DNA of 26,406 nt from Clostridia bacterium (GTDB taxonomy: Bacteria > Bacillota > Clostridia > UMGS1883), in assembly GCA_900768005.1 (NCBI GenBank), contig CAAGBE010000087.1, positions 1 through 26,406 of the forward strand, given 5' to 3'. Made by a program: the position numbers and the translations under genes. The notes beneath the pieces are model-generated. The model was not told the origin of the DNA, did not search any database, and was given only the letters and a program-made list of their open reading frames with translations. Shown in pieces: positions 7,825-18,131 of this stretch (position 1 is its first letter; each line of letters begins with the position of its first letter).

Positions 7825-7830
7825 AATTAT

Positions 7831-8162
7831 GAGTAATCCTGTAAGCCGAGTTCTGTCGTTTAAAACGGTCATCTATCTACGCCGTATATCTCTACACGGC
7901 TCCAGCCGCCCGTCGGATTATAGGTCGGACAAACCAATCCTGTCGGCGTTGCTTCGGATGGGGTTTACATGGCACAAAGCGTTACCGCAATGTCGGTGGG
8001 CTCTTACCCCGCCTTTCCACCCTTACTTGTATAACAAGCGGTTTATTTCTGTTGCACTTTCCTTAGAGTCGCCTCCACCGGGATTTCTCCGGCATCCTGT
8101 CCTGCGAAGCTCGGACTTTCCTCATCAGTACAAATGTACTGCCGCGACCGTTCAGATTACTC
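7831..8162 (-). ncRNA. rnpB: RNase P RNA, bacterial class A
   Basis: Minus strand: GAGTAATC 5' end pairs with GATTACTC 3' end (P1); GAGGAAAGTCC and ACAGAACTCGGCTTA (P4 halves); GGAAAGTGCAACAGAAA; GTAAACCCCA. Confidence 0.97.
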
Positions 8163-8169
8163 GGTGTCT

Positions 8170-10870: not shown

Positions 10871-11437
10871 TCACTTGCCTGTAAGTTCTAAAAATTTTTC
10901 TTTAGTAATAAGTGCATTAAGTGCATCAATTAGCCCGTTGACAGAAATTTTTTCAGGTATTGATAGCTTCCTGCACAAGGAGATACGGGCGGCGGCACTA
11001 TCTGTACCGCCGTATAATCCGCTGTCGTACAAATCATTTTTTGTTATTTTTTCCTTTGCATCCAAAGGTGAGGTATACTTTGACAAAATCTCGGAAAGGA
11101 GCTTTTCATCAATCCCCTCAACTCCAAGCTTGCCCTCCTTTGACGGGGCAGACTTTCTTTTTTCCTTGCCGAATATTTCGGGGATATACGCCTGCTTTAT
11201 TTCGCCCTCAGTCACAAAGCCCTTGATATGATTGCGTATCATAAAGCCTGCACGGTCAGAATCGGTCAGGATAAGGAGCCCGCGTGTCTTTGCCAGTGCC
11301 TTTAAAAACTCCCGCTTTTCCTTATTTTTAAAAATCCGGAATCCCTCGGTGGTAAAGACAGGGGATGAGCAAACTCTTTCAAGCCGCATCTTGTCGTATT
11401 TCCCCTCGACAATAATTGCTTCCTTAATATTTAACAT
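10871..11437 (-). CDS. rnmV: Ribonuclease M5-like Toprim/DUF4093 protein
   Basis: IIVEGKYD, LTDSDRAG..IR, GVEG, Toprim acidic motifs. Confidence 0.8.
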   Translation of the reverse strand: MLNIKEAIIVEGKYDKMRLERVCSSPVFTTEGFRIFKNKEKREFLKALAKTRGLLILTDSDRAGFMIRNHIKGFVTEGEIKQAYIPEIFGKEKRKSAPSKEGKLGVEGIDEKLLSEILSKYTSPLDAKEKITKNDLYDSGLYGGTDSAAARISLCRKLSIPEKISVNGLIDALNALITKEKFLELTGK

Positions 11438-11961
11438 CAGTCTGTTTCAATAAGTCCGTAGTTACCGTCTTTACGGCGGTAAACTATATCGGTTGTATTT
11501 GTCTGTGCGTTGCGGAAAATGAAGAAATTGTGTCCGAGCAGATTCATCTGCAAAACTGCTTCCTCCGCACTCATTGGTTTAACGTGGTGGGTCTTAGTCT
11601 TAACAATCTTGATTTCAACATCATCCTGCACAGCTTCATCAAAGAAATCAACTTCCTTGGAAACGCCCTCGCGAAGCTTTTTCGCAAGGCGTGTTTTGTT
11701 CTTACGAATCTGCTTTGTAATAGCATCAACAACATCATCGGCAGCATTGTAAACTTCGACATCACGTTCTTCAGCGCGGTAAATCATATCTGCCGTACGG
11801 ATGGTAACTTCGACAGTCATTTTATCCTTCTGCTCACTAACCACAATATCAGCCTGAGCTTCGTCGTCAAAGAACTTGCCCAGCTTGTCTATCTTTTTAA
11901 TGAGCATTTCTTTCTTTTCCTTGCCGAGTTCAATCTTTCTTACATAAATGTTAGTTTTCAT
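11437..11961 (-). CDS. hpf: Long-form ribosome hibernation promoting factor (RaiA/HPF)
   Basis: KQIRKNKTRL, KPMSAEEAVLQMNLLGHNFFIF, VYRRKDGNYGLIE; true start is ATG 11961 behind AAGGAGG (the ORF-track extension to 12087 runs into the repeat). Confidence 0.93.
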   Translation of the reverse strand: MKTNIYVRKIELGKEKKEMLIKKIDKLGKFFDDEAQADIVVSEQKDKMTVEVTIRTADMIYRAEERDVEVYNAADDVVDAITKQIRKNKTRLAKKLREGVSKEVDFFDEAVQDDVEIKIVKTKTHHVKPMSAEEAVLQMNLLGHNFFIFRNAQTNTTDIVYRRKDGNYGLIETD

Positions 11962-11978
11962 ATGTGCCCCTCCTTTTA

Positions 11979-12250
11979 GCCGAAACGAAGCAATCCAAAC
12001 TCGATTTTTAGAGGCGGATTTTCGCTTTTGCTGTGTTAAAATACTCGGAAATACACAAAGTATTTCCTGCGTTTTTGCCTTGCACAATCAAAAATCTGCT
12101 TTCTAAAAATTCGAAGACCTGAAACGGATGAAATTTTGAGCAGGTTTTGGTGCGAAGGATGCAGCAAGGCTTTGTGCCTTGCAAAGACAACAAGCCGAAA
12201 GATGCCGAAATTTCACCGTATCAGGCGAATTTGGATTATTTCGTTTCGGC
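11979..12250. mobile_element. 272 bp Y-shaped structured repeat, copy 1 (MITE-like or structured RNA)
   Basis: Terminal inverted repeat 11978-12003/12226-12251 (23/26), two internal hairpin arms, TTA on both sides; collinear with 16515-16786. Confidence 0.8.
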
Positions 12251-12288
12251 TTATGTTGTGTAAGAAAAGCTTGGCTTTTCTTACCTAT

Positions 12289-12317
12289 ATTATACTATAA
12301 GTTGTGGCAATAGTAAA
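12289..12317 (-). promoter_or_regulatory. Candidate promoter of the hpf operon
   Basis: TTTACT (12317-12312), 17 bp spacer, TATAAT (12294-12289). Confidence 0.55.
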
Positions 12318-12364
12318 TAATTTTCTTTGCATATTGATAAAAAAATGTGTTGACCTATAAAAAT

Positions 12365-12380
12365 CAACAATATGTAGTGA
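12365..12380. promoter_or_regulatory. NrdR box (distal)
   Basis: caaCaAtATgTaGtga matches all strongly conserved positions of acaCwAtATaTwGtgt. Confidence 0.65.
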
Positions 12381-12508
12381 AAAAACAACCAAAAAGTTGC
12401 TATTTTTTCTATAAATTGTGTTTTTTTTATTGGAGAAATTGTGCCAAAAGCCCCTACAAACCCCTATATAAAGCCATTATCGGGCATTATTACAGAAAAA
12501 TTAAAAAT

Positions 12509-12556
12509 ACCCAACATATAGTTATTTTGTATTGACAAAGCAACAAGATGTTGTTA
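12509..12556. promoter_or_regulatory. Tandem NrdR boxes (12509-12524 and 12541-12556)
   Basis: accCaAcATaTaGtta and caaCaAgATgTtGtta, starts 32 bp apart, upstream of nrdD. Confidence 0.85.
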
Positions 12557-12560
12557 TAAT
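12532..12560 (+). promoter_or_regulatory. Consensus sigma-A promoter of nrdD
   Basis: TTGACA (12532-12537), 17 bp spacer, TATAAT (12555-12560) with TG extension. Confidence 0.9.
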
Positions 12561-12603
12561 GGTAATACACAATTTTGAAAGATAAATTTATGGAGGGAAA
12601 GAG

Positions 12604-14781
12604 ATGAAGATTATAAAAAGAAGCGGTGCCGAAGTAACATTTGACCCCGAAAAAATTATAGTCGCAATCACAAAAGCAAACGAAAGCGTAGTGCCAAGCA
12701 GCCGTATGACACCTATTCAGATTAAGCGTATCGCGGAGGATGTTGAGAGTGCGGCAGCAAATATCAACAGGTCCTTGAGCGTGGAAGAAATACAGGATAT
12801 GGTAGAGGACCAGATTATGAATCAGCGTGCGTTTGACGTAGCACGCAGATACATTACATACCGTTACAACAGGGCACTTATTCGTAAGTCCAACACAACT
12901 GATGAACAGATTATGAGCCTTATCGAGTGCAATAACGAAGAAGTTAAGCAGGAAAACTCTAACAAGAATCCTACTGTAAACAGCGTTCAGCGTGACTACA
13001 TGGCAGGCGAGGTTAGTAAGGATATTACAAAGAGAATCCTTCTTGCTCCCGAAATTGTTTCCGCACACGACCAGGGACTTATCCATTTCCACGATGCTGA
13101 CTACTTTGCACAGCATATGCATAACTGTGACCTGGTAAACCTTGAGGATATGCTTCAGAACGGTACAGTTATCAGCGGTACAATGATTGAAAAACCCCAC
13201 AGCTTTTCTACTGCCTGCAATATTTCTACACAGATTATTGCACAGGTTGCTTCCTGTCAGTACGGCGGACAGAGTATTTCTCTTACACATCTCGCTCCCT
13301 TTGTTGATATCAGCCGTAAGAAAATACGCAAGCAGGTAGAAGAGGAAATGGCTCTTCTTGATGAAAAGGTTTCCGAGGAGAAGATTTCCGAAATTACAGA
13401 AAAAAGACTTCGTGAAGAGGTTAAAAACGGCGTACAGATGATTCAGTATCAGGTTGTAACCCTTATGACAACTAACGGTCAGGCACCTTTTGTTACTGTA
13501 TTTATGTACCTTAACGAAGCTAAGAATGAGCAGGAGAAGAAAGACCTTGCCCTCATTATTGAAGAAACCCTCCGTCAGAGATACAGAGGTGTCAAGAATG
13601 AAAAGGGTATATGGATTACACCTGCGTTCCCCAAGCTTATCTATGTTCTTGAAGAGGATAATATCCACGAGGACAGCAAATACTACTACCTTACAGAGCT
13701 TGCGGCAAAATGTACTGCAAAGCGTATGGTACCCGACTATATTTCCGAAAAGATTATGCTCCAGAACAAGGTTGACAAAAACGGTGACGGTCATTGCTAC
13801 ACCTGTATGGGCTGCAGAAGCTTCCTCACACCCTTTGTTGACGAAGACGGCAAACCCAAGTATTACGGCAGATTCAATCAGGGCGTTGTAACTGTTAATC
13901 TTGTTGATATCGGGCTTTCAGCAGGCGGTGATATGGAAAAATTCTGGAAGATATTTGACGATAGAATGGAGCTTTGCCACAGAGCGCTTCAGGCACGTCA
14001 CGAAAGACTTACAGGAACACTTTCCGATGCGGCTCCCATCCTTTGGCAGCACGGTGCACTTCTCCGTCTTGAAAAGGGTGAGAAGATTGACAAGTATCTT
14101 CACGGCGGATATTCTACACTTTCTCTTGGCTATGCAGGTCTTTGGGAATGTGTATACAGCTTAAACGGTAAGAAACTTACCGAACCTGCAGGTGAAAAGC
14201 TTGGCCTTGAAATCATGCAGAAGCTTAATGAATATACAGCTAAGTGGAAAGCGGAAGAAAAGATTGACTATTCACTTTACGGTACACCTCTTGAAAGCAC
14301 AACCTACAAGTTTGCTAAGTGCCTTCAGAAGAGATTCGGTATAATCAAGGGTGTAACTGACAAAAACTACATTACAAACAGCTACCACGTACACGTAACA
14401 GAGGATATTGATGCATTTGACAAGCTTGCTCTTGAAGCAAAATTCCAGGCACTTTCTCCCGGCGGTGCAATCAGCTATGTGGAAGTTCCCAATATGCAGA
14501 ATAACCTCGAAGCTGTACTTTCCGTAATGAGATTTATCTATGACAATATTATGTATGCAGAGCTTAATACCAAGAGCGACTATTGTCAGGACTGCGGATT
14601 TGACGGTGAAATTGAAGTTCACGAGGATGAGCACGGAAAGCTTGTATGGCAGTGTCCCAACTGCGGTAACACCGACCAGTCCAAGCTTAATGTAGCTCGT
14701 CGTACCTGCGGATATATCGGAACACAGTTCTGGAATCAGGGAAGAACACAGGAAATTAAGGAAAGAGTTCTCCATTTATAA
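12604..14781 (+). CDS. nrdD: Anaerobic (class III) ribonucleoside-triphosphate reductase
   Basis: N-terminal ATP cone (IIKRSG...FD..KI), MGCRSFL, YITNSYH, C-terminal CxxC...CxxC and RRTCGYIG glycyl-radical loop. Confidence 0.97.
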   Translation: MKIIKRSGAEVTFDPEKIIVAITKANESVVPSSRMTPIQIKRIAEDVESAAANINRSLSVEEIQDMVEDQIMNQRAFDVARRYITYRYNRALIRKSNTTDEQIMSLIECNNEEVKQENSNKNPTVNSVQRDYMAGEVSKDITKRILLAPEIVSAHDQGLIHFHDADYFAQHMHNCDLVNLEDMLQNGTVISGTMIEKPHSFSTACNISTQIIAQVASCQYGGQSISLTHLAPFVDISRKKIRKQVEEEMALLDEKVSEEKISEITEKRLREEVKNGVQMIQYQVVTLMTTNGQAPFVTVFMYLNEAKNEQEKKDLALIIEETLRQRYRGVKNEKGIWITPAFPKLIYVLEEDNIHEDSKYYYLTELAAKCTAKRMVPDYISEKIMLQNKVDKNGDGHCYTCMGCRSFLTPFVDEDGKPKYYGRFNQGVVTVNLVDIGLSAGGDMEKFWKIFDDRMELCHRALQARHERLTGTLSDAAPILWQHGALLRLEKGEKIDKYLHGGYSTLSLGYAGLWECVYSLNGKKLTEPAGEKLGLEIMQKLNEYTAKWKAEEKIDYSLYGTPLESTTYKFAKCLQKRFGIIKGVTDKNYITNSYHVHVTEDIDAFDKLALEAKFQALSPGGAISYVEVPNMQNNLEAVLSVMRFIYDNIMYAELNTKSDYCQDCGFDGEIEVHEDEHGKLVWQCPNCGNTDQSKLNVARRTCGYIGTQFWNQGRTQEIKERVLHL

Positions 14782-14789
14782 TAATAATT

Positions 14790-14816
14790 TTAGGGTACGA
14801 AAATTTCGTACCCTAA
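14790..14816 (+). terminator. Hairpin between nrdD and nrdG
   Basis: TTAGGGTACGAAA-A-TTTCGTACCCTAA with only a short T-run after it. Confidence 0.55.
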
Positions 14817-14825
14817 TTTAAAGAG

Positions 14826-15389
14826 ATGAAAACAATGAACATAGCTACAGTTAAAAAATTTGATATTGCCAATGGCCCAGGGGTAAGAGTATCCCTTTTT
14901 GTCAGCGGATGCAGACATCACTGCAAAAACTGTTTCAACAAGGAAGCATGGGATTTTAACTACGGCAACCCTATGACCAAGGAAATTGAGAAAGAAATAT
15001 TAGATGCCTGCAACCCCGAACATATTACAGGACTTTCACTTCTTGGAGGAGAACCTTTTGAAAAGGAAAACAGGGCAGGGCTTATTTCCATTACAAAAAA
15101 ATTTCGAGAGCTGTATCCTGAAAAAAATATCTGGTGTTATACGGGATTTTTGCTTGATGAAGAGCTTTTAAAATCTGAGGACAGCGATATTTTGGAGCTT
15201 CTTCAAAATATTGATGTTTTAGTTGACGGCAGATTTGTAGACGAGCTTAAAAGTGCGGCTCTTTTATTCCGCGGTTCATCCAATCAGCGTATTATAGACG
15301 TAGCTGAAACTCTTAAAAAGGGTGAGGTTGTGCTTCTTCCTGGAAAGTGGGAGAGAACAATGGGCAGCGGTGACATTTACGAAGCATAG
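14826..15389 (+). CDS. nrdG: Anaerobic RNR activating radical SAM protein
   Basis: NGPGVRVSLFVSGCRHHCKNCFN, LLGGEP, DVLVDGRF, FRGSSNQR; alternative start at 14835. Confidence 0.95.
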   Translation: MKTMNIATVKKFDIANGPGVRVSLFVSGCRHHCKNCFNKEAWDFNYGNPMTKEIEKEILDACNPEHITGLSLLGGEPFEKENRAGLISITKKFRELYPEKNIWCYTGFLLDEELLKSEDSDILELLQNIDVLVDGRFVDELKSAALLFRGSSNQRIIDVAETLKKGEVVLLPGKWERTMGSGDIYEA

Positions 15390-15407
15390 AATGAGAGGAA
15401 ATTTAAA

Positions 15408-15854
15408 ATGAACAAATATTCAGTAAGAATTAAAAAACTTGACGAAAATGCAATAATCCCCACATACGGCAGTGAATTTGCCGCAGGTGCAGACCTTTAT
15501 GCCTGCACTGGTGAAACCGTTACAATCAATCCGCACGAAACAAAGCTTATCCATACGGGAATAGCAATGGAAATCCCCACAGGATACGCAGGTCTTATCT
15601 ATGCAAGAAGCGGTATTGCCTCAAAAAGAGGTCTTGCACCAGCCAATAAGGTTGGCGTTGTAGACAGCGACTACCGTGGGGAATTAATGGTAGCACTTCA
15701 TAACCACTCTAGCGAACCACAGTCAATAGACAACGGAGAAAGAATTGCACAGCTTGTAATTGCACCATATGTAGTTGCAGATTTTGTTCTTTCAGACGAG
15801 CTTGATGATACCCAGCGCGGAGAGGGAGGATTCGGCTCCACAGGAAAGAAATAA
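15408..15854 (+). CDS. dut: Trimeric dUTPase
   Basis: AGADL, RSG, GVVDSDYRGE, RIAQL, RGEGGFGSTG. Confidence 0.97.
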   Translation: MNKYSVRIKKLDENAIIPTYGSEFAAGADLYACTGETVTINPHETKLIHTGIAMEIPTGYAGLIYARSGIASKRGLAPANKVGVVDSDYRGELMVALHNHSSEPQSIDNGERIAQLVIAPYVVADFVLSDELDDTQRGEGGFGSTGKK

Positions 15855-15861
15855 TGCAATT

Positions 15862-15897
15862 AAAAAGGAAATTCACATTTTGTGAATTTCCTTTTTT
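15862..15897. terminator. Bidirectional intrinsic terminator
   Basis: AAAAAGGAAATTCACA-ttt-TGTGAATTTCCTTTTT between convergent dut and flavin reductase genes. Confidence 0.85.
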
Positions 15898-15898
15898 G

Positions 15899-16498
15899 TT
15901 ACTGCAGTGGCTCAAAATCACTTGCAGGGTGCTTGCACCATGGGCAAATGAAGTCCTCAGGAAGCGGGTCCCCCTCGTACACATATCCGCAGATTTTACA
16001 TACATAGCCTTTTTTCTTTGCTTCGGGCTTGGGCTTAATGTTCTTGAAATAGTAGTCATAAGTTACAGAAGGCTTGTCGGATAGCGTAAGTGCCTGTGTA
16101 ACCTCGCCTATAATCATCATATGTGTCCCGCAGTCAATCATATTTACAACCTTTGCACTTATATATGCATTCGTGTAATTGGTGAGGTAATAAACATCAT
16201 TGCAGGAACGCTGTTTGTACTCGAAATCAGTGAATTTATTTTCCTCTCTTCCACTTTTGAAACCAAACCTTTCAAATACGGAGAACGGAACATCCTCAGA
16301 AAGAACACTCACGTTGAAAACGCCGCTTTTTTCAATCATTTCGAGGGTGTAGTTGTTTTTATTTATTGCAACTGTAATCTGCAATGGGGTATCCGTAACC
16401 TGCATAACAGTATTTATTATACAGCCGTTGTCTTTCATCCCATCCCGTGCGGAAAGCACAAAAAGTCCGTAAGTAAGCTTGAATAATGTTTCTTTCAT
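15899..16498 (-). CDS. Flavin reductase-like protein with C-terminal rubredoxin-like domain (high-molecular-weight rubredoxin type)
   Basis: LTYGLFV, NGCIINT..QVT, FGFKSGR, GTH..IIGEV; CKICGYVY...CPWC; AAGGAG RBS. Confidence 0.9.
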   Translation of the reverse strand: MKETLFKLTYGLFVLSARDGMKDNGCIINTVMQVTDTPLQITVAINKNNYTLEMIEKSGVFNVSVLSEDVPFSVFERFGFKSGREENKFTDFEYKQRSCNDVYYLTNYTNAYISAKVVNMIDCGTHMMIIGEVTQALTLSDKPSVTYDYYFKNIKPKPEAKKKGYVCKICGYVYEGDPLPEDFICPWCKHPASDFEPLQ

Positions 16499-16514
16499 AG
16501 CAAATTCTCCTTTA

Positions 16515-16786
16515 GCCGAAAGCGAATAATCCGAACCTCGATTTTAAAAGGCAGATTTTTGCTTTCACTGTGTTAAAATACTCGAAAATACACAAAGTAT
16601 TTTCTGCGTTTTTGCCTTGTGCAACCAAAAATCTGCACTTTTATAATTCTTCGACCTGAAACGGATGGAATTTCGTGTAGATTTTGGTGCGGAAGATGAA
16701 GCAAGGCTGACGCCTTGCAAAGATGACAAGCCGAAATGTACCGAAATAGCACCGTTTCAGGCGGGTTCGGATTATTCGCTTTCGGC
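16515..16786. mobile_element. 272 bp Y-shaped structured repeat, copy 2
   Basis: Perfect 26 bp inverted repeat 16512-16537/16764-16789; same two arms as copy 1; flanked by TTA and TAA. Confidence 0.8.
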
Positions 16787-16789
16787 TAA

Positions 16790-17060
16790 GCATAAGAGAG
16801 TCGAACCTCATATGCCTTAAACTTGTTAAATTCGTATTCTTTTTATTTGTCGTCCTCGAAAGGCGACAGCCTATCTTCGTCCTCCGCACAAAAATCATAT
16901 CCAATTTTCCTGCGTTTAAGGTCGAAGAGTTTTTAAATAAGAAATTTTGTTATAAGACAAAGAAAATTCAAAAATAATACTGTCGTATATTTGCAGAATT
17001 TTCTGCAGTATTATGCAAAATTTCTATTTTAAAACCATATTAGGTTCGATTATCTTATGC
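16790..17060. mobile_element. 271 bp Y-shaped structured repeat, copy 3 (inverted, diverged, different terminal stem)
   Basis: Inverted repeat 16787-16814/17036-17063 (25/28); 16846-16896 matches the reverse complement of 16680-16730 at 40/51 without gaps. Confidence 0.75.
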
Positions 17061-18131
17061 TTAACATATTGTACCTCCGCCGACTACAATGTCACCGTCG
17101 TAGAGGACAACTGCCTGCCCCTTGGTAATAGCTCTTTGCGGCTGGTCAAATGTAACGCGGATTGTATTTTCATCAATTTGTACCACCGTAGCGTCCTGCT
17201 CCGTATGACGGTAACGCACCTTTGCCTTAACTCTTTTCGGGGTGTATAGGTCAGGTACGCTGATAAGGTTTATATCCGTTGCTGTAAGCTCTTTTGAGAA
17301 AAGCCCCTCGTGAGGACAGAGGACAACTTCGTTTTTTTCTGTATCCAATCTGCAAACGTAAAGGGGAGCAGGGAGGGAAAGTCCCAGTCCTTTTCGTTGA
17401 CCCACAGTGTAGCGGATAATACCCTTGTGCGTGCCGAGAATATTTCCGTCGCTATCTACGAAATTTCCGTCAGGGTAACTTTTCCCCGTATATCTCTCAA
17501 TAAAGTCGGTGTAATCTTCGCCCTTTACGAAGCATATGTCCTGACTTTCTTTCTTATGAGCATTTACAAAACCGTTTTCTTCTGCAATGGAACGTGCCTC
17601 TGCCTTGGTCATATCTCCTAATGGGAAGATAACCTTGGAAAGCTGATTCTGAGTAAGGGAATATAGCACATAACTCTGGTCTTTGGATGAATCCTTTGCC
17701 TTTTTAAGAATCCACCTGCCACTTTCCTCATCATACTCAACACAGGCGTAGTGTCCCGTGGCAATGTGACTGCAACCTAAGTTTTCCGCCTCTTTAAAAA
17801 GCCTTTCAAACTTTAAATATCGGTTACATTCTATGCAGGGATTTGGCGTTGCACCTGTTTCATATGCGTGAACGAACTTATTTACAACCATATCTGCAAA
17901 ATGTTCGGAAAAATCATAGAGATAATGCTCCATGCCAAGCTTTTTACAAACTTTCTTTGCATCCTCAATATCTTCCTTTGAACAGCAGGCGTGCTGCTCG
18001 TCAAGTTCAATTCCGCCACCGCCGAGAAGCTTCATAGTCGCGCCGATACAATCTGTATTTTTTTCTTTTACAAGGAGTGCCGCAACGGCACTGTCAACGC
18101 CTCCGCTCATCGCGATTAAGCATTTAGTCAT
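17061..18131 (-). CDS. mnmA: tRNA-specific 2-thiouridylase
   Basis: AMSGGVDS PP-loop, TPNPCIECN, ATGHY, KDQSY, ESQDICF, YTVGQRKGL. Confidence 0.96.
   Translation of the reverse strand: MTKCLIAMSGGVDSAVAALLVKEKNTDCIGATMKLLGGGGIELDEQHACCSKEDIEDAKKVCKKLGMEHYLYDFSEHFADMVVNKFVHAYETGATPNPCIECNRYLKFERLFKEAENLGCSHIATGHYACVEYDEESGRWILKKAKDSSKDQSYVLYSLTQNQLSKVIFPLGDMTKAEARSIAEENGFVNAHKKESQDICFVKGEDYTDFIERYTGKSYPDGNFVDSDGNILGTHKGIIRYTVGQRKGLGLSLPAPLYVCRLDTEKNEVVLCPHEGLFSKELTATDINLISVPDLYTPKRVKAKVRYRHTEQDATVVQIDENTIRVTFDQPQRAITKGQAVVLYDGDIVVGGGTIC

Follow-up and report, generated by a model that had tools for sequence, protein, structure and literature searches.

Three copies of a Y-shaped repeat, in which a terminal stem closes two long hairpin arms, lie in the window, a stretch of 26,406 nucleotides from the genome of a Clostridia bacterium. 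The question that they raise is what kind of element this is and what put it between the genes where it is found. The preliminary description of the locus had proposed either a non-autonomous mobile element or a mobile structured RNA or single-stranded DNA. We find that the Y element is a mobile, gene-less, TA-flanked element of fixed size with a three-way-junction fold, and we propose that its movement depends on an enzyme encoded elsewhere that would recognize this fold.

The shared architecture of the three copies is real, and their folding goes far beyond chance. The core of copy 1 (11979-12250, plus strand; 272 bp; c2-type subfamily) has exactly the coordinates and arm strings first reported for it when these are checked against the sequence. 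In the inverted-repeat listing its left stem (11979-12003) pairs with the right stem (12226-12250). Between them are arm 1 (12004-12110), placed on the minus strand by the family-wide best fold on the bottom strand and tipped by a hairpin at 12047-12067 on the same strand (loop TTTGT), and arm 2 (12118-12225), which folds best on the top strand and whose tip hairpin (12164-12182) lies within a tandem G·A module (12151-12193). Copy 2 (16515-16786, plus strand; c2-type; arm-2 motif 16688-16729) is likewise 272 bp and is 81.8% identical to copy 1. Copy 3, originally delimited as a 271-bp element, has a 273-bp core (16789-17061) when placed in the TA register of the family; it belongs to the c3-type subfamily and is inverted, lying on the strand opposite to copies 1 and 2 (arm-2 motif 16847-16888). 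The terminal stems listed for the three copies are 26 nt at 88%, 26 nt at 100% and 35 nt at 83%, respectively. The folds of copies 1 and 3 have z-scores of -8.8 and -9.4, and in neither case did any of 200 shuffled sequences fold as well. Two long arms per copy were initially described, but the minimum-energy fold of copy 3 has one clean long arm only, on either strand; the evidence for its second arm is covariation together with non-canonical pairing. Among the open reading frames listed for the window no credible one lies inside the copies, as had been claimed; one of the frames there extends hpf in frame, and another, of 87 aa, spans copies 2 and 3.

Copy 1 is located in the 5' leader of hpf/yfiA (11437-11961, minus strand), which encodes a ribosome hibernation factor, between the ribosome-binding site (11969-11975) and a promoter-like site, TTTACT-17-TATAAT (12289-12317, minus strand), recognized only by its match to the consensus. 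It is preceded by TA (11977-11978) and followed by TT(A) (12251-12253), so its site is not a clean TA duplication; neither of the two window sites is. Copies 2 and 3 lie upstream of a gene for a flavin reductase with a rubredoxin-like domain (15899-16498, minus strand) and downstream of mnmA (17061-18131, minus strand). They meet right end to right end via a single TA (16787-16788), an arrangement of copies also found at other loci. The TA left of copy 2 (16513-16514) is directly upstream of an AAGGAG ribosome-binding site (16507-16512, minus strand), and the TA flanking copy 3 (17062-17063) doubles as the TA of the mnmA stop codon TAA, whose last base is the first base of copy 3. Locus alignment revealed that both sites are empty in the close relatives G003 and G012, and that the copy 1 site is unoccupied in every other genome of the alignment; in empty relatives the mnmA stop codon is only a few bases from the next ribosome-binding site.

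The repeat is not confined to these sites. This partial genome (911 kb) contains seven full copies, the arm-2 motif is present in 39 of 401 Clostridia genomes, and additional filled/empty orthologous pairs were found beyond the window. The Y elements are short, non-coding, multicopy and dispersed, with terminal inverted repeats and empty orthologous sites in relatives, as expected for MITEs; the two findings by which mobility was to be judged, further copies and empty sites in relatives, were both made and, together with the TA flanks, support a non-autonomous mobile element. Searches of a plasmid collection with copy 2 and of viral contigs with the arm-2 motif gave no match. Copies across the family sit in leaders, operon junctions and RNA loops, with a bias toward sites adjoining ribosome-binding sites.

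The terminal stem is the fastest-changing part of the element, unlike that of ordinary MITEs, and yet its pairing and length are kept. There are 124 different first 12-mers among 179 full copies, and a terminal repeat conserved across the family and common to an autonomous insertion sequence was not found among the insertion sequences examined. Across 68 nearest-neighbor pairs, identity is 95% in the interior and 87% in the stem; at 72 positions the stem is altered on both sides and still paired, against about 22 both-side changes expected if the sides varied independently. The pairing figures are inflated by the selection of full copies with at least 16 of 20 complementary stem positions, and they come from related, non-independent copies. 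The stem measures 24-25 nt in 153/179 copies on the left and 150/179 on the right, and 171 of the 179 full copies are 271-275 bp long; with the covariation of the stems, this bears out the suggestion of selection for fold and size. Ends that keep pairing and length, not sequence, hint at an enzyme recognizing shape. An origin of the stems by copying from a neighboring gene was considered and rejected, as the empty sites, read by eye, contain no stem arms.

What is conserved is the three-way junction together with the two arm modules, the invariant columns being clustered at the junction and the arm loops. By DNA energies, the bottom strand gives the better fold of arm 1 in 82/90 copies and the top strand that of arm 2 in 85/90; read on these preferred strands, the two arms have the loop set TGAC/TGTC/TTTGT/TGGC in common. 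The apparent loop of arm 2 is itself paired, as G-C, GA·AG, G-C or A-T, GA·AG, C-G or T-A in most of 174/179 copies, and the tandem G·A pairs of the arm modules covary. When arm 2 is compared by profile with arm 1 reversed, the similarity is weak (best E 0.005, most above 0.5), which counts against reading the arms as inverted homologs. In the stem, wobble pairs show no strand bias (69 G·T versus 76 A·C). A strand-neutral stem carrying arms that prefer opposite strands fits DNA better than a single transcript, and of the two options first offered the mobile element stands while the RNA is weakened. Kissing loops between the arm tips were rejected: the tips are complementary in copies 1 and 3, not in copy 2, and the count of 13/80 against 8.2 in shuffled sequences was not relied on because the loop pattern used for counting was inconsistent.

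TA is present at both ends in 114/179 copies and missing on at least one side in the remaining 65, which counts against movement into TA-centered sites. An exact TA duplication is seen at C27 compared with G012, and a net gain of 2 bp is the commonest class among filled/empty pairs (5/18), but 13/18 pairs differ from it (range -10 to +29) and some sites are replacements of up to about 30 bp. Since the TA is constant, a duplication and an element-borne base are inseparable in the 272-bp family. Target-site duplication is clear only in a sister family of 172 bp, which has 3-4-bp TA-centered duplications: 4-bp direct repeats are present in 97 of 127 rows, where shuffling gives 12.5 on average, and empty alleles (96.6-100% identity) are shorter by 4 bp in two comparisons, 3 bp in three and 1 bp in one. 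The two families have only arm 1 and the overall shape in common, and the enzyme of the sister family may be a different one. A 4-bp target as the source of the inner base of 273-bp copies was unsupported (14 versus 11.4 and 14 versus 11.8 expected).

The view that the repeat belongs to no named family holds against both Rfam and the literature: Rfam gave no relevant match for the window, nine loci with derivatives and five sister-family loci, and the papers listed in literature searches included no description of the Y element. ERIC, RUP and Correia/NEMIS are MITEs linked to IS630, with terminal repeats conserved in sequence. In the Y element, by contrast, the terminal repeats drift fastest and the interior is conserved, and the IS630-type DDE_3 domain (PF13358) exceeded the cut-off in 0/41 genomes, a result that means 'not found', not absence, because the genomes are incomplete. 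These MITEs are similarly short and non-coding, with a terminal inverted repeat, TA at both ends and co-transcription with host genes (PMC3184786). The bcr1 repeat of the Bacillus cereus group is likewise mobile and gene-less and occurs in Firmicutes; its terminal stem closes two stem-loops, compensatory changes and flanking direct repeats are described, and the description names no transposase (PMC3184786). It measures about 155 bp, and its direct repeats 5 bp (PMC3184786), which sets it apart from the Y element with its 272-273 bp, TA flanks and long arms favoring opposite strands. REP/REPIN with RAYT and TIRtrons with TIRYT are also structure-forming extragenic repeats mobilized in trans and found in tandem arrays (PMC6006769, PMC3733652); compared with them, the Y element is much longer, lacks a tetranucleotide foot, shows some evidence of target duplication and was not found flanking a tyrosine transposase gene of its own. 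Orphan structured motifs of gut Clostridia also include Clostridiales-1 (RF01699) and similar gut RNAs (PMC2864571); in the Rfam scans, window copies, one-arm derivatives and the sister family gave no match at the gathering score or a relaxed E-value. A separate direct search for RF01699, in which no positive control gave a signal, carries no weight alone.

What, then, moves the element? The IS630, IS110, IS4/IS5-type, IS1182, Y1 and integrase genes that were examined yielded no partner enzyme; for ISL2/PIF, IS427/IS1031, IS3, IS701 and reverse transcriptases the analysis covered the neighbors of known copies, where Pfam was run on 104 of 109 selected frames, the five omitted having already been recognized. 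Two copies in G022, and one in G021, flank a tyrosine recombinase that belongs to a tRNA-anchored island; the G005 homolog has no copy at either site, which makes the island a host or vector, and the recombinase was rejected as a partner, and no further relatives of it were found in metagenome and viral contigs. Twenty partial matches from five genomes, considered as possible split autonomous elements, proved to be contig ends, internal deletions and diverged subfamilies; in G640 a lone left half is followed by a frame that is, we presume, Crp-like. No autonomous element was found.

Several other explanations were weighed against fold recognition. One is a conventional MITE, mobilized in double-stranded form by a DDE transposase (IS630 or IS5-type) for which the outermost few bases suffice, the Y fold being kept because transcribed copies do no harm only when folded away; this seems to us unlikely. 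Sequence-specific end binding predicts a conserved terminal repeat, and here that repeat is the least conserved part; no IS630 transposase with related ends was found in the lineage to go with the TA flanks, DDE_3 exceeding the cut-off in none of the 41 incomplete genomes, and the IS1182 and IS4/IS5-type elements that were found have unrelated ends. TA flanks and staggered-cut duplication do agree with a conventional MITE, as does the placement in leaders, operon junctions and RNA loops. Orientation, moreover, is strongly tied to the direction of transcription in a subfamily-dependent manner (33 versus 6 for c2-type, 7 versus 30 for c3-type), which could mean selection on the transcript rather than recognition of DNA; selection on one transcript, however, predicts neither opposite-strand arms nor a strand-neutral stem. 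Precedents exist in ERIC, flanked by TA, and in bcr1, whose two-loop cruciform is maintained by compensatory changes (PMC3184786). A host regulatory RNA structure conserved for the neighboring genes would suit copies at ribosome-binding sites and leaders, some of which may affect expression; this reading is hardly credible and already largely refuted by empty orthologous sites in close relatives. The neighbors are unrelated genes (623 frames in 462 clusters).

An element acting or moving as RNA, whether retro-mobile or serving an IS110-type recombinase as a bridge-RNA-like guide with a TA core, is quite improbable. Tandem G·A pairing is not peculiar to DNA but occurs in RNA too, the two arms have internal loops, arm 2 contains many G·U-type pairs on the top strand, and the bias to sites adjoining ribosome-binding sites also agrees with RNA; against this, the internal loops are self-paired and constant across unrelated targets and are therefore not guide-like, the arms prefer opposite strands, and no reverse transcriptase was present among the 104 neighbors scanned. 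IS110 genes occur in 7/41 genomes, with flanks unlike the element; neither variable guide loops nor a likeness to IS110/IS1111 ends was found. We also regard as unlikely a REPIN-like element that a Y1 HUH enzyme (RAYT/TIRYT or IS200 TnpA) would cut and paste in single-stranded form, the second TA being element-borne. It would account for strand-specific hairpins with conserved loops and for imprecise replacements at some sites, and Y1 genes occur in 27/41 genomes. The variable 4-bp duplications of the sister family, however, are not expected from peel-and-paste; the consensus and flank tallies contain no GTAG/GGAG foot before a short palindrome; and no Y1 gene was found in G000 (69% complete). 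A copy lies within 1.5 kb at 2 of 30 Y1 loci, none of which is flanked by the repeat as a cognate pair: both nearby genes are TIRYT-type with their own GGGGAC repeats (PMC6006769, PMC3733652), and the orthologous TIRYT loci L267 and L269 are empty.

We therefore favor, at a probability of about one half, a non-autonomous, MITE-like DNA element that is copied or moved into TA-centered sites by an enzyme encoded elsewhere and recognized by its fold. As neither an autonomous element nor a partner enzyme was found, we infer each step of recognition and cutting. The enzyme would recognize folded DNA, as a single strand or a cruciform, rather than end sequence. Its contacts would be with the junction and with one or both of the arm-tip modules, taken as inverted homologs read on opposite strands, and it would cut about 25 bp off, at the foot of the terminal stem. 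Integration would follow by a staggered cut, duplicating 2 bp in the 272-bp family and 3-4 bp in its sister. In this model the stem is a spacer of drifting sequence, its sides kept matched by copy-correction in a paired intermediate or by selection. A closed stem that rejoins the flanks and restores the TA could explain why the host tolerates copies that land in RNA loops or separate a stop codon from a ribosome-binding site. Recognition of single-strand structure is known from HUH and integron enzymes, and target duplication from DDE enzymes. It is possible, and we suggest it tentatively, that the family is the substrate of an undescribed transposition system, whose enzyme reads a DNA three-way junction with strand-specific G·A arms, cuts at a fixed distance whatever the end sequence and integrates by a staggered cut.

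If the Y element is only MITE-like, gut Clostridia have in it an abundant, apparently uncatalogued cause of insertions, which fall at ribosome-binding sites, operon junctions and RNA loops; the repeat also causes assembly breaks and false 'conserved RNA' calls. The reading by fold recognition is testable, since Subdoligranulum variabile, records of which carry the sister family, is a cultured carrier. Were that reading true, the transposase would have an unusual way of defining element ends; in the more tentative case of an undescribed transposition system, single-strand structure recognition of the HUH/integron type would be combined with target duplication of the DDE type, and the element would rewrite its own terminal repeats during movement.

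The gene-less elements of the window, in which a terminal stem closes two long arms, belong to a widespread mobile family (the Y family). The window's own genome (G000; 911 kb, 69% complete) holds seven full copies and fragments; the query 16400-17200, which includes gene flanks too, has matches in 33 of 41 genomes, the window's own counted, and five genomes searched with a sequence profile each yielded 15-61 matches, counting weak and partial ones. The arm-2 motif was found in 39 of 401 genomes sampled across the class, the reversed motif in none of the same 401, and the named records carrying it are mostly uncultured gut Clostridia. The preliminary description proposed a non-autonomous mobile element, which is supported by the many dispersed copies and by orthologous empty sites: both window sites are empty in the comparison genomes G003 and G012, and conversely the window's genome has empty sites where relatives carry a copy. 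The genes beside Y copies are not related to one another: 623 frames make up 462 clusters. Divergent subfamilies, with both arms of the arm-1 type and in some cases an extended terminal stem, occur at G000:C95:119-339 and at the extracted loci L138, L507, L510 and L511, and many weak matches of this kind lie in G005 and G006. A one-arm relative (L503:860-970, G011:C14) lies beside a gene set that we take to be an rRNA operon. At L031:2518-2886, close to a one-arm Y copy, a DUF559 endonuclease gene carries its own short palindromic repeat, which is a separate repeat family.

All three elements reported earlier were found in the window, and the strings given there for the two arms of copy 1 match its sequence exactly. 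Copy 1 (11979-12250) and copy 2 (16515-16786), 272 bp each and 81.8% identical, belong to the c2-type subfamily; the shared architecture and coordinates stand for these two, but had to be revised for copy 3, a c3-type element on the opposite strand that measures 273 bp in family register (16789-17061). A single TA is common to the right ends of copies 2 and 3. Copy 1 separates a promoter-like site from the hpf ribosome-binding site, and copies 2 and 3 occupy the gap from the mnmA stop codon to the ribosome-binding site preceding a flavin-reductase gene. In folding, copies 1 and 3 beat their shuffles by far (z -8.8 and -9.4; 0 of 200 as good in each case), but the Y shape of copy 3 rests on comparison because its minimum-energy fold has one clean long arm only. 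A GTTCG-containing motif resembling a tRNA T-loop appears to recur in many copies within the otherwise variable terminal stem (e.g. window 17040-17050).

With a minimum of 16 complementary stem positions out of 20 as the criterion, 179 full copies were collected; 171 of them are 271-275 bp long, bearing out the fixed size claimed before, and 114 have TA at both flanks. Among 18 filled/empty pairs (flank identity at least 84%) the commonest class is a net gain of 2 bp (5/18), the other 13 spreading from -10 to +29 bp; C27 against G012 shows an exact TA duplication, C7, C2 and C28 fit about +2 bp without an exact TA, and neither window site has a clean TA duplication. At some sites the Y element replaces a different 15-35-bp hairpin instead of adding to it (L200 vs G000:C91; L011 vs G000:C22; L020 vs L036 and L089). 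A sister family, sharing arm 1 and the overall shape, was detected via arm 1 in human-gut contigs and makes a true staggered-cut duplication: 109 of 127 rows (some elements counted on both strands) are 172 bp, 97 have variable 4-bp direct repeats (shuffled mean 12.5, maximum 22), and near-identical empty alleles lack 4, 4, 3, 3, 3 and 1 bp. By analogy, the Y family of the window may share this duplication. Records named Subdoligranulum variabile hold four related copies within 50 kb, of which three have exact 4-bp repeats. Nine GenBank records labelled 'Bacteriophage sp.' (L245-L253), which are broken at the 172-bp repeat, are taken to be ordinary pieces of bacterial chromosome.

Conservation within the Y family is lowest in the terminal stem, with 124 different first 12-mers among the 179 copies and, in 68 nearest-neighbour pairs, 87% identity vs 95% in the interior. 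In these pairs 91 stem positions changed on both sides, where independence would give about 22 such changes, and 72 of the 91 stay paired, a descriptive comparison only, the pairs being related. The stem measures 24-25 nt on its left side in 153 of the 179 copies and on its right side in 150, and mismatches are balanced between G·T (69) and A·C (76) in 90 copies. The junction and the arms contain the invariant columns, and changes affect both partners in 55 of 68 predicted arm pairs. The better strand for folding is the bottom one for arm 1, in 82 of 90 copies by DNA energies (66 by RNA energies), and the top one for arm 2, in 85 (81); both arms end in the same loop set when each is read on its favoured strand. 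What looks like an internal loop in arm 2 is in fact a duplex built of tandem G·A pairs with covarying Watson-Crick spacers (G-C 118 or A-T 54; C-G 101 or T-A 58; 174 of 179 copies scored). Some relatives have two arm-1-type arms in inverted orientation, and in many copies the stem is retained and one arm is cut down to a short hairpin. As the profiles of the two arms, compared directly, are only weakly similar, we infer from these strand, loop and arm patterns that the two may be homologous. Other structured repeats are nested in family members at the arm-tip loop or arm base, the same composite occurring at several loci (L401, L413 and L434, 284 bp; L372, L376 and L390, 236 bp; L227, L296 and L301).

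The Y family combines mobility, fixed size, TA flanks, a freely drifting yet paired stem and strand-split arms. We propose, with a probability of about one half, that an enzyme would recognise the junction and arm tips of the folded DNA and cut at a fixed distance, that integration would use a staggered cut, and that copy-correction would keep the two stem sides matched. A conventional DDE MITE, its fold maintained by selection on transcripts, appears unlikely, although orientation bias favours it: between co-oriented genes c2-type copies are antisense in 33 cases and sense in 6, and c3-type copies sense in 30 and antisense in 7. We consider a HUH/REPIN-type element improbable and an RNA-based one slightly more so, and a host regulatory RNA can hardly be entertained. 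In 30 of 71 c2-type and 26 of 63 c3-type copies a ribosome-binding motif is no more than 16 nt away on the matching side, and this shared preference for a TA in front of a ribosome-binding site, with the two subfamilies facing opposite ways, accounts for the right-end/right-end pair in the window. The arrangement occurs at six other loci, besides three same-direction and two left-end/left-end pairs. One Y copy breaks the 3' end of the RNase P RNA gene in another genome (L025; the class A gene of the window lies at 7826-8163, minus strand), and others sit in leaders that are presumably of the T-box and FMN-riboswitch-like kinds.

No partner enzyme was found among the families examined in these genomes, which are fragmented assemblies where insertion sequences are often lost. 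None of 41 genomes has an IS630-type domain above the cut-off. Y1 genes are present in 27 of the 41 and two adjoin a Y copy, but the suggested search for copies flanking a transposase or HUH gene led no further, both neighbours being of the TIRYT class with its own repeats and their orthologous loci being empty. Y1 genes of the TIRYT type that are bounded on both sides by tandem GGGGAC-containing repeats (L263-L275, L282, L283) are common in the window's genus and order. IS110 (7 of 41 genomes), IS4/IS5-type (8 of 39) and IS1182 (9 of 39) genes were rejected, their flanks being unrelated to the Y family wherever comparable. A tyrosine-recombinase island after a tRNA cluster (L084:930-4400, G022:C97; two recombinases with a short frame between) contains a Y copy together with a one-arm copy; it was dismissed as partner since its homologue in another genome has no copies, and it could spread the family between genomes. 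Twenty partial matches in five genomes, considered as split autonomous elements, proved to be contig ends, deletions or diverged subfamilies.

The Y element works like a MITE. In the comparison literature (PMC3184786, PMC6006769, PMC3733652, PMC2267715, PMC2864571), its closest counterparts are bcr1 and the TA-flanked ERIC/RUP/Correia elements (PMC3184786); it lacks conserved terminal repeats common to any IS examined, and is therefore placed with neither. The literature searched, which excludes most subscription journals, gave no description of the family; the supplementary list of PMC2864571 and later gut RNA-motif screens could include parts of it. The Y family is real and is an apparently uncatalogued variant of the non-autonomous mobile element, and the problem of how its ends are defined would strike a specialist as odd.
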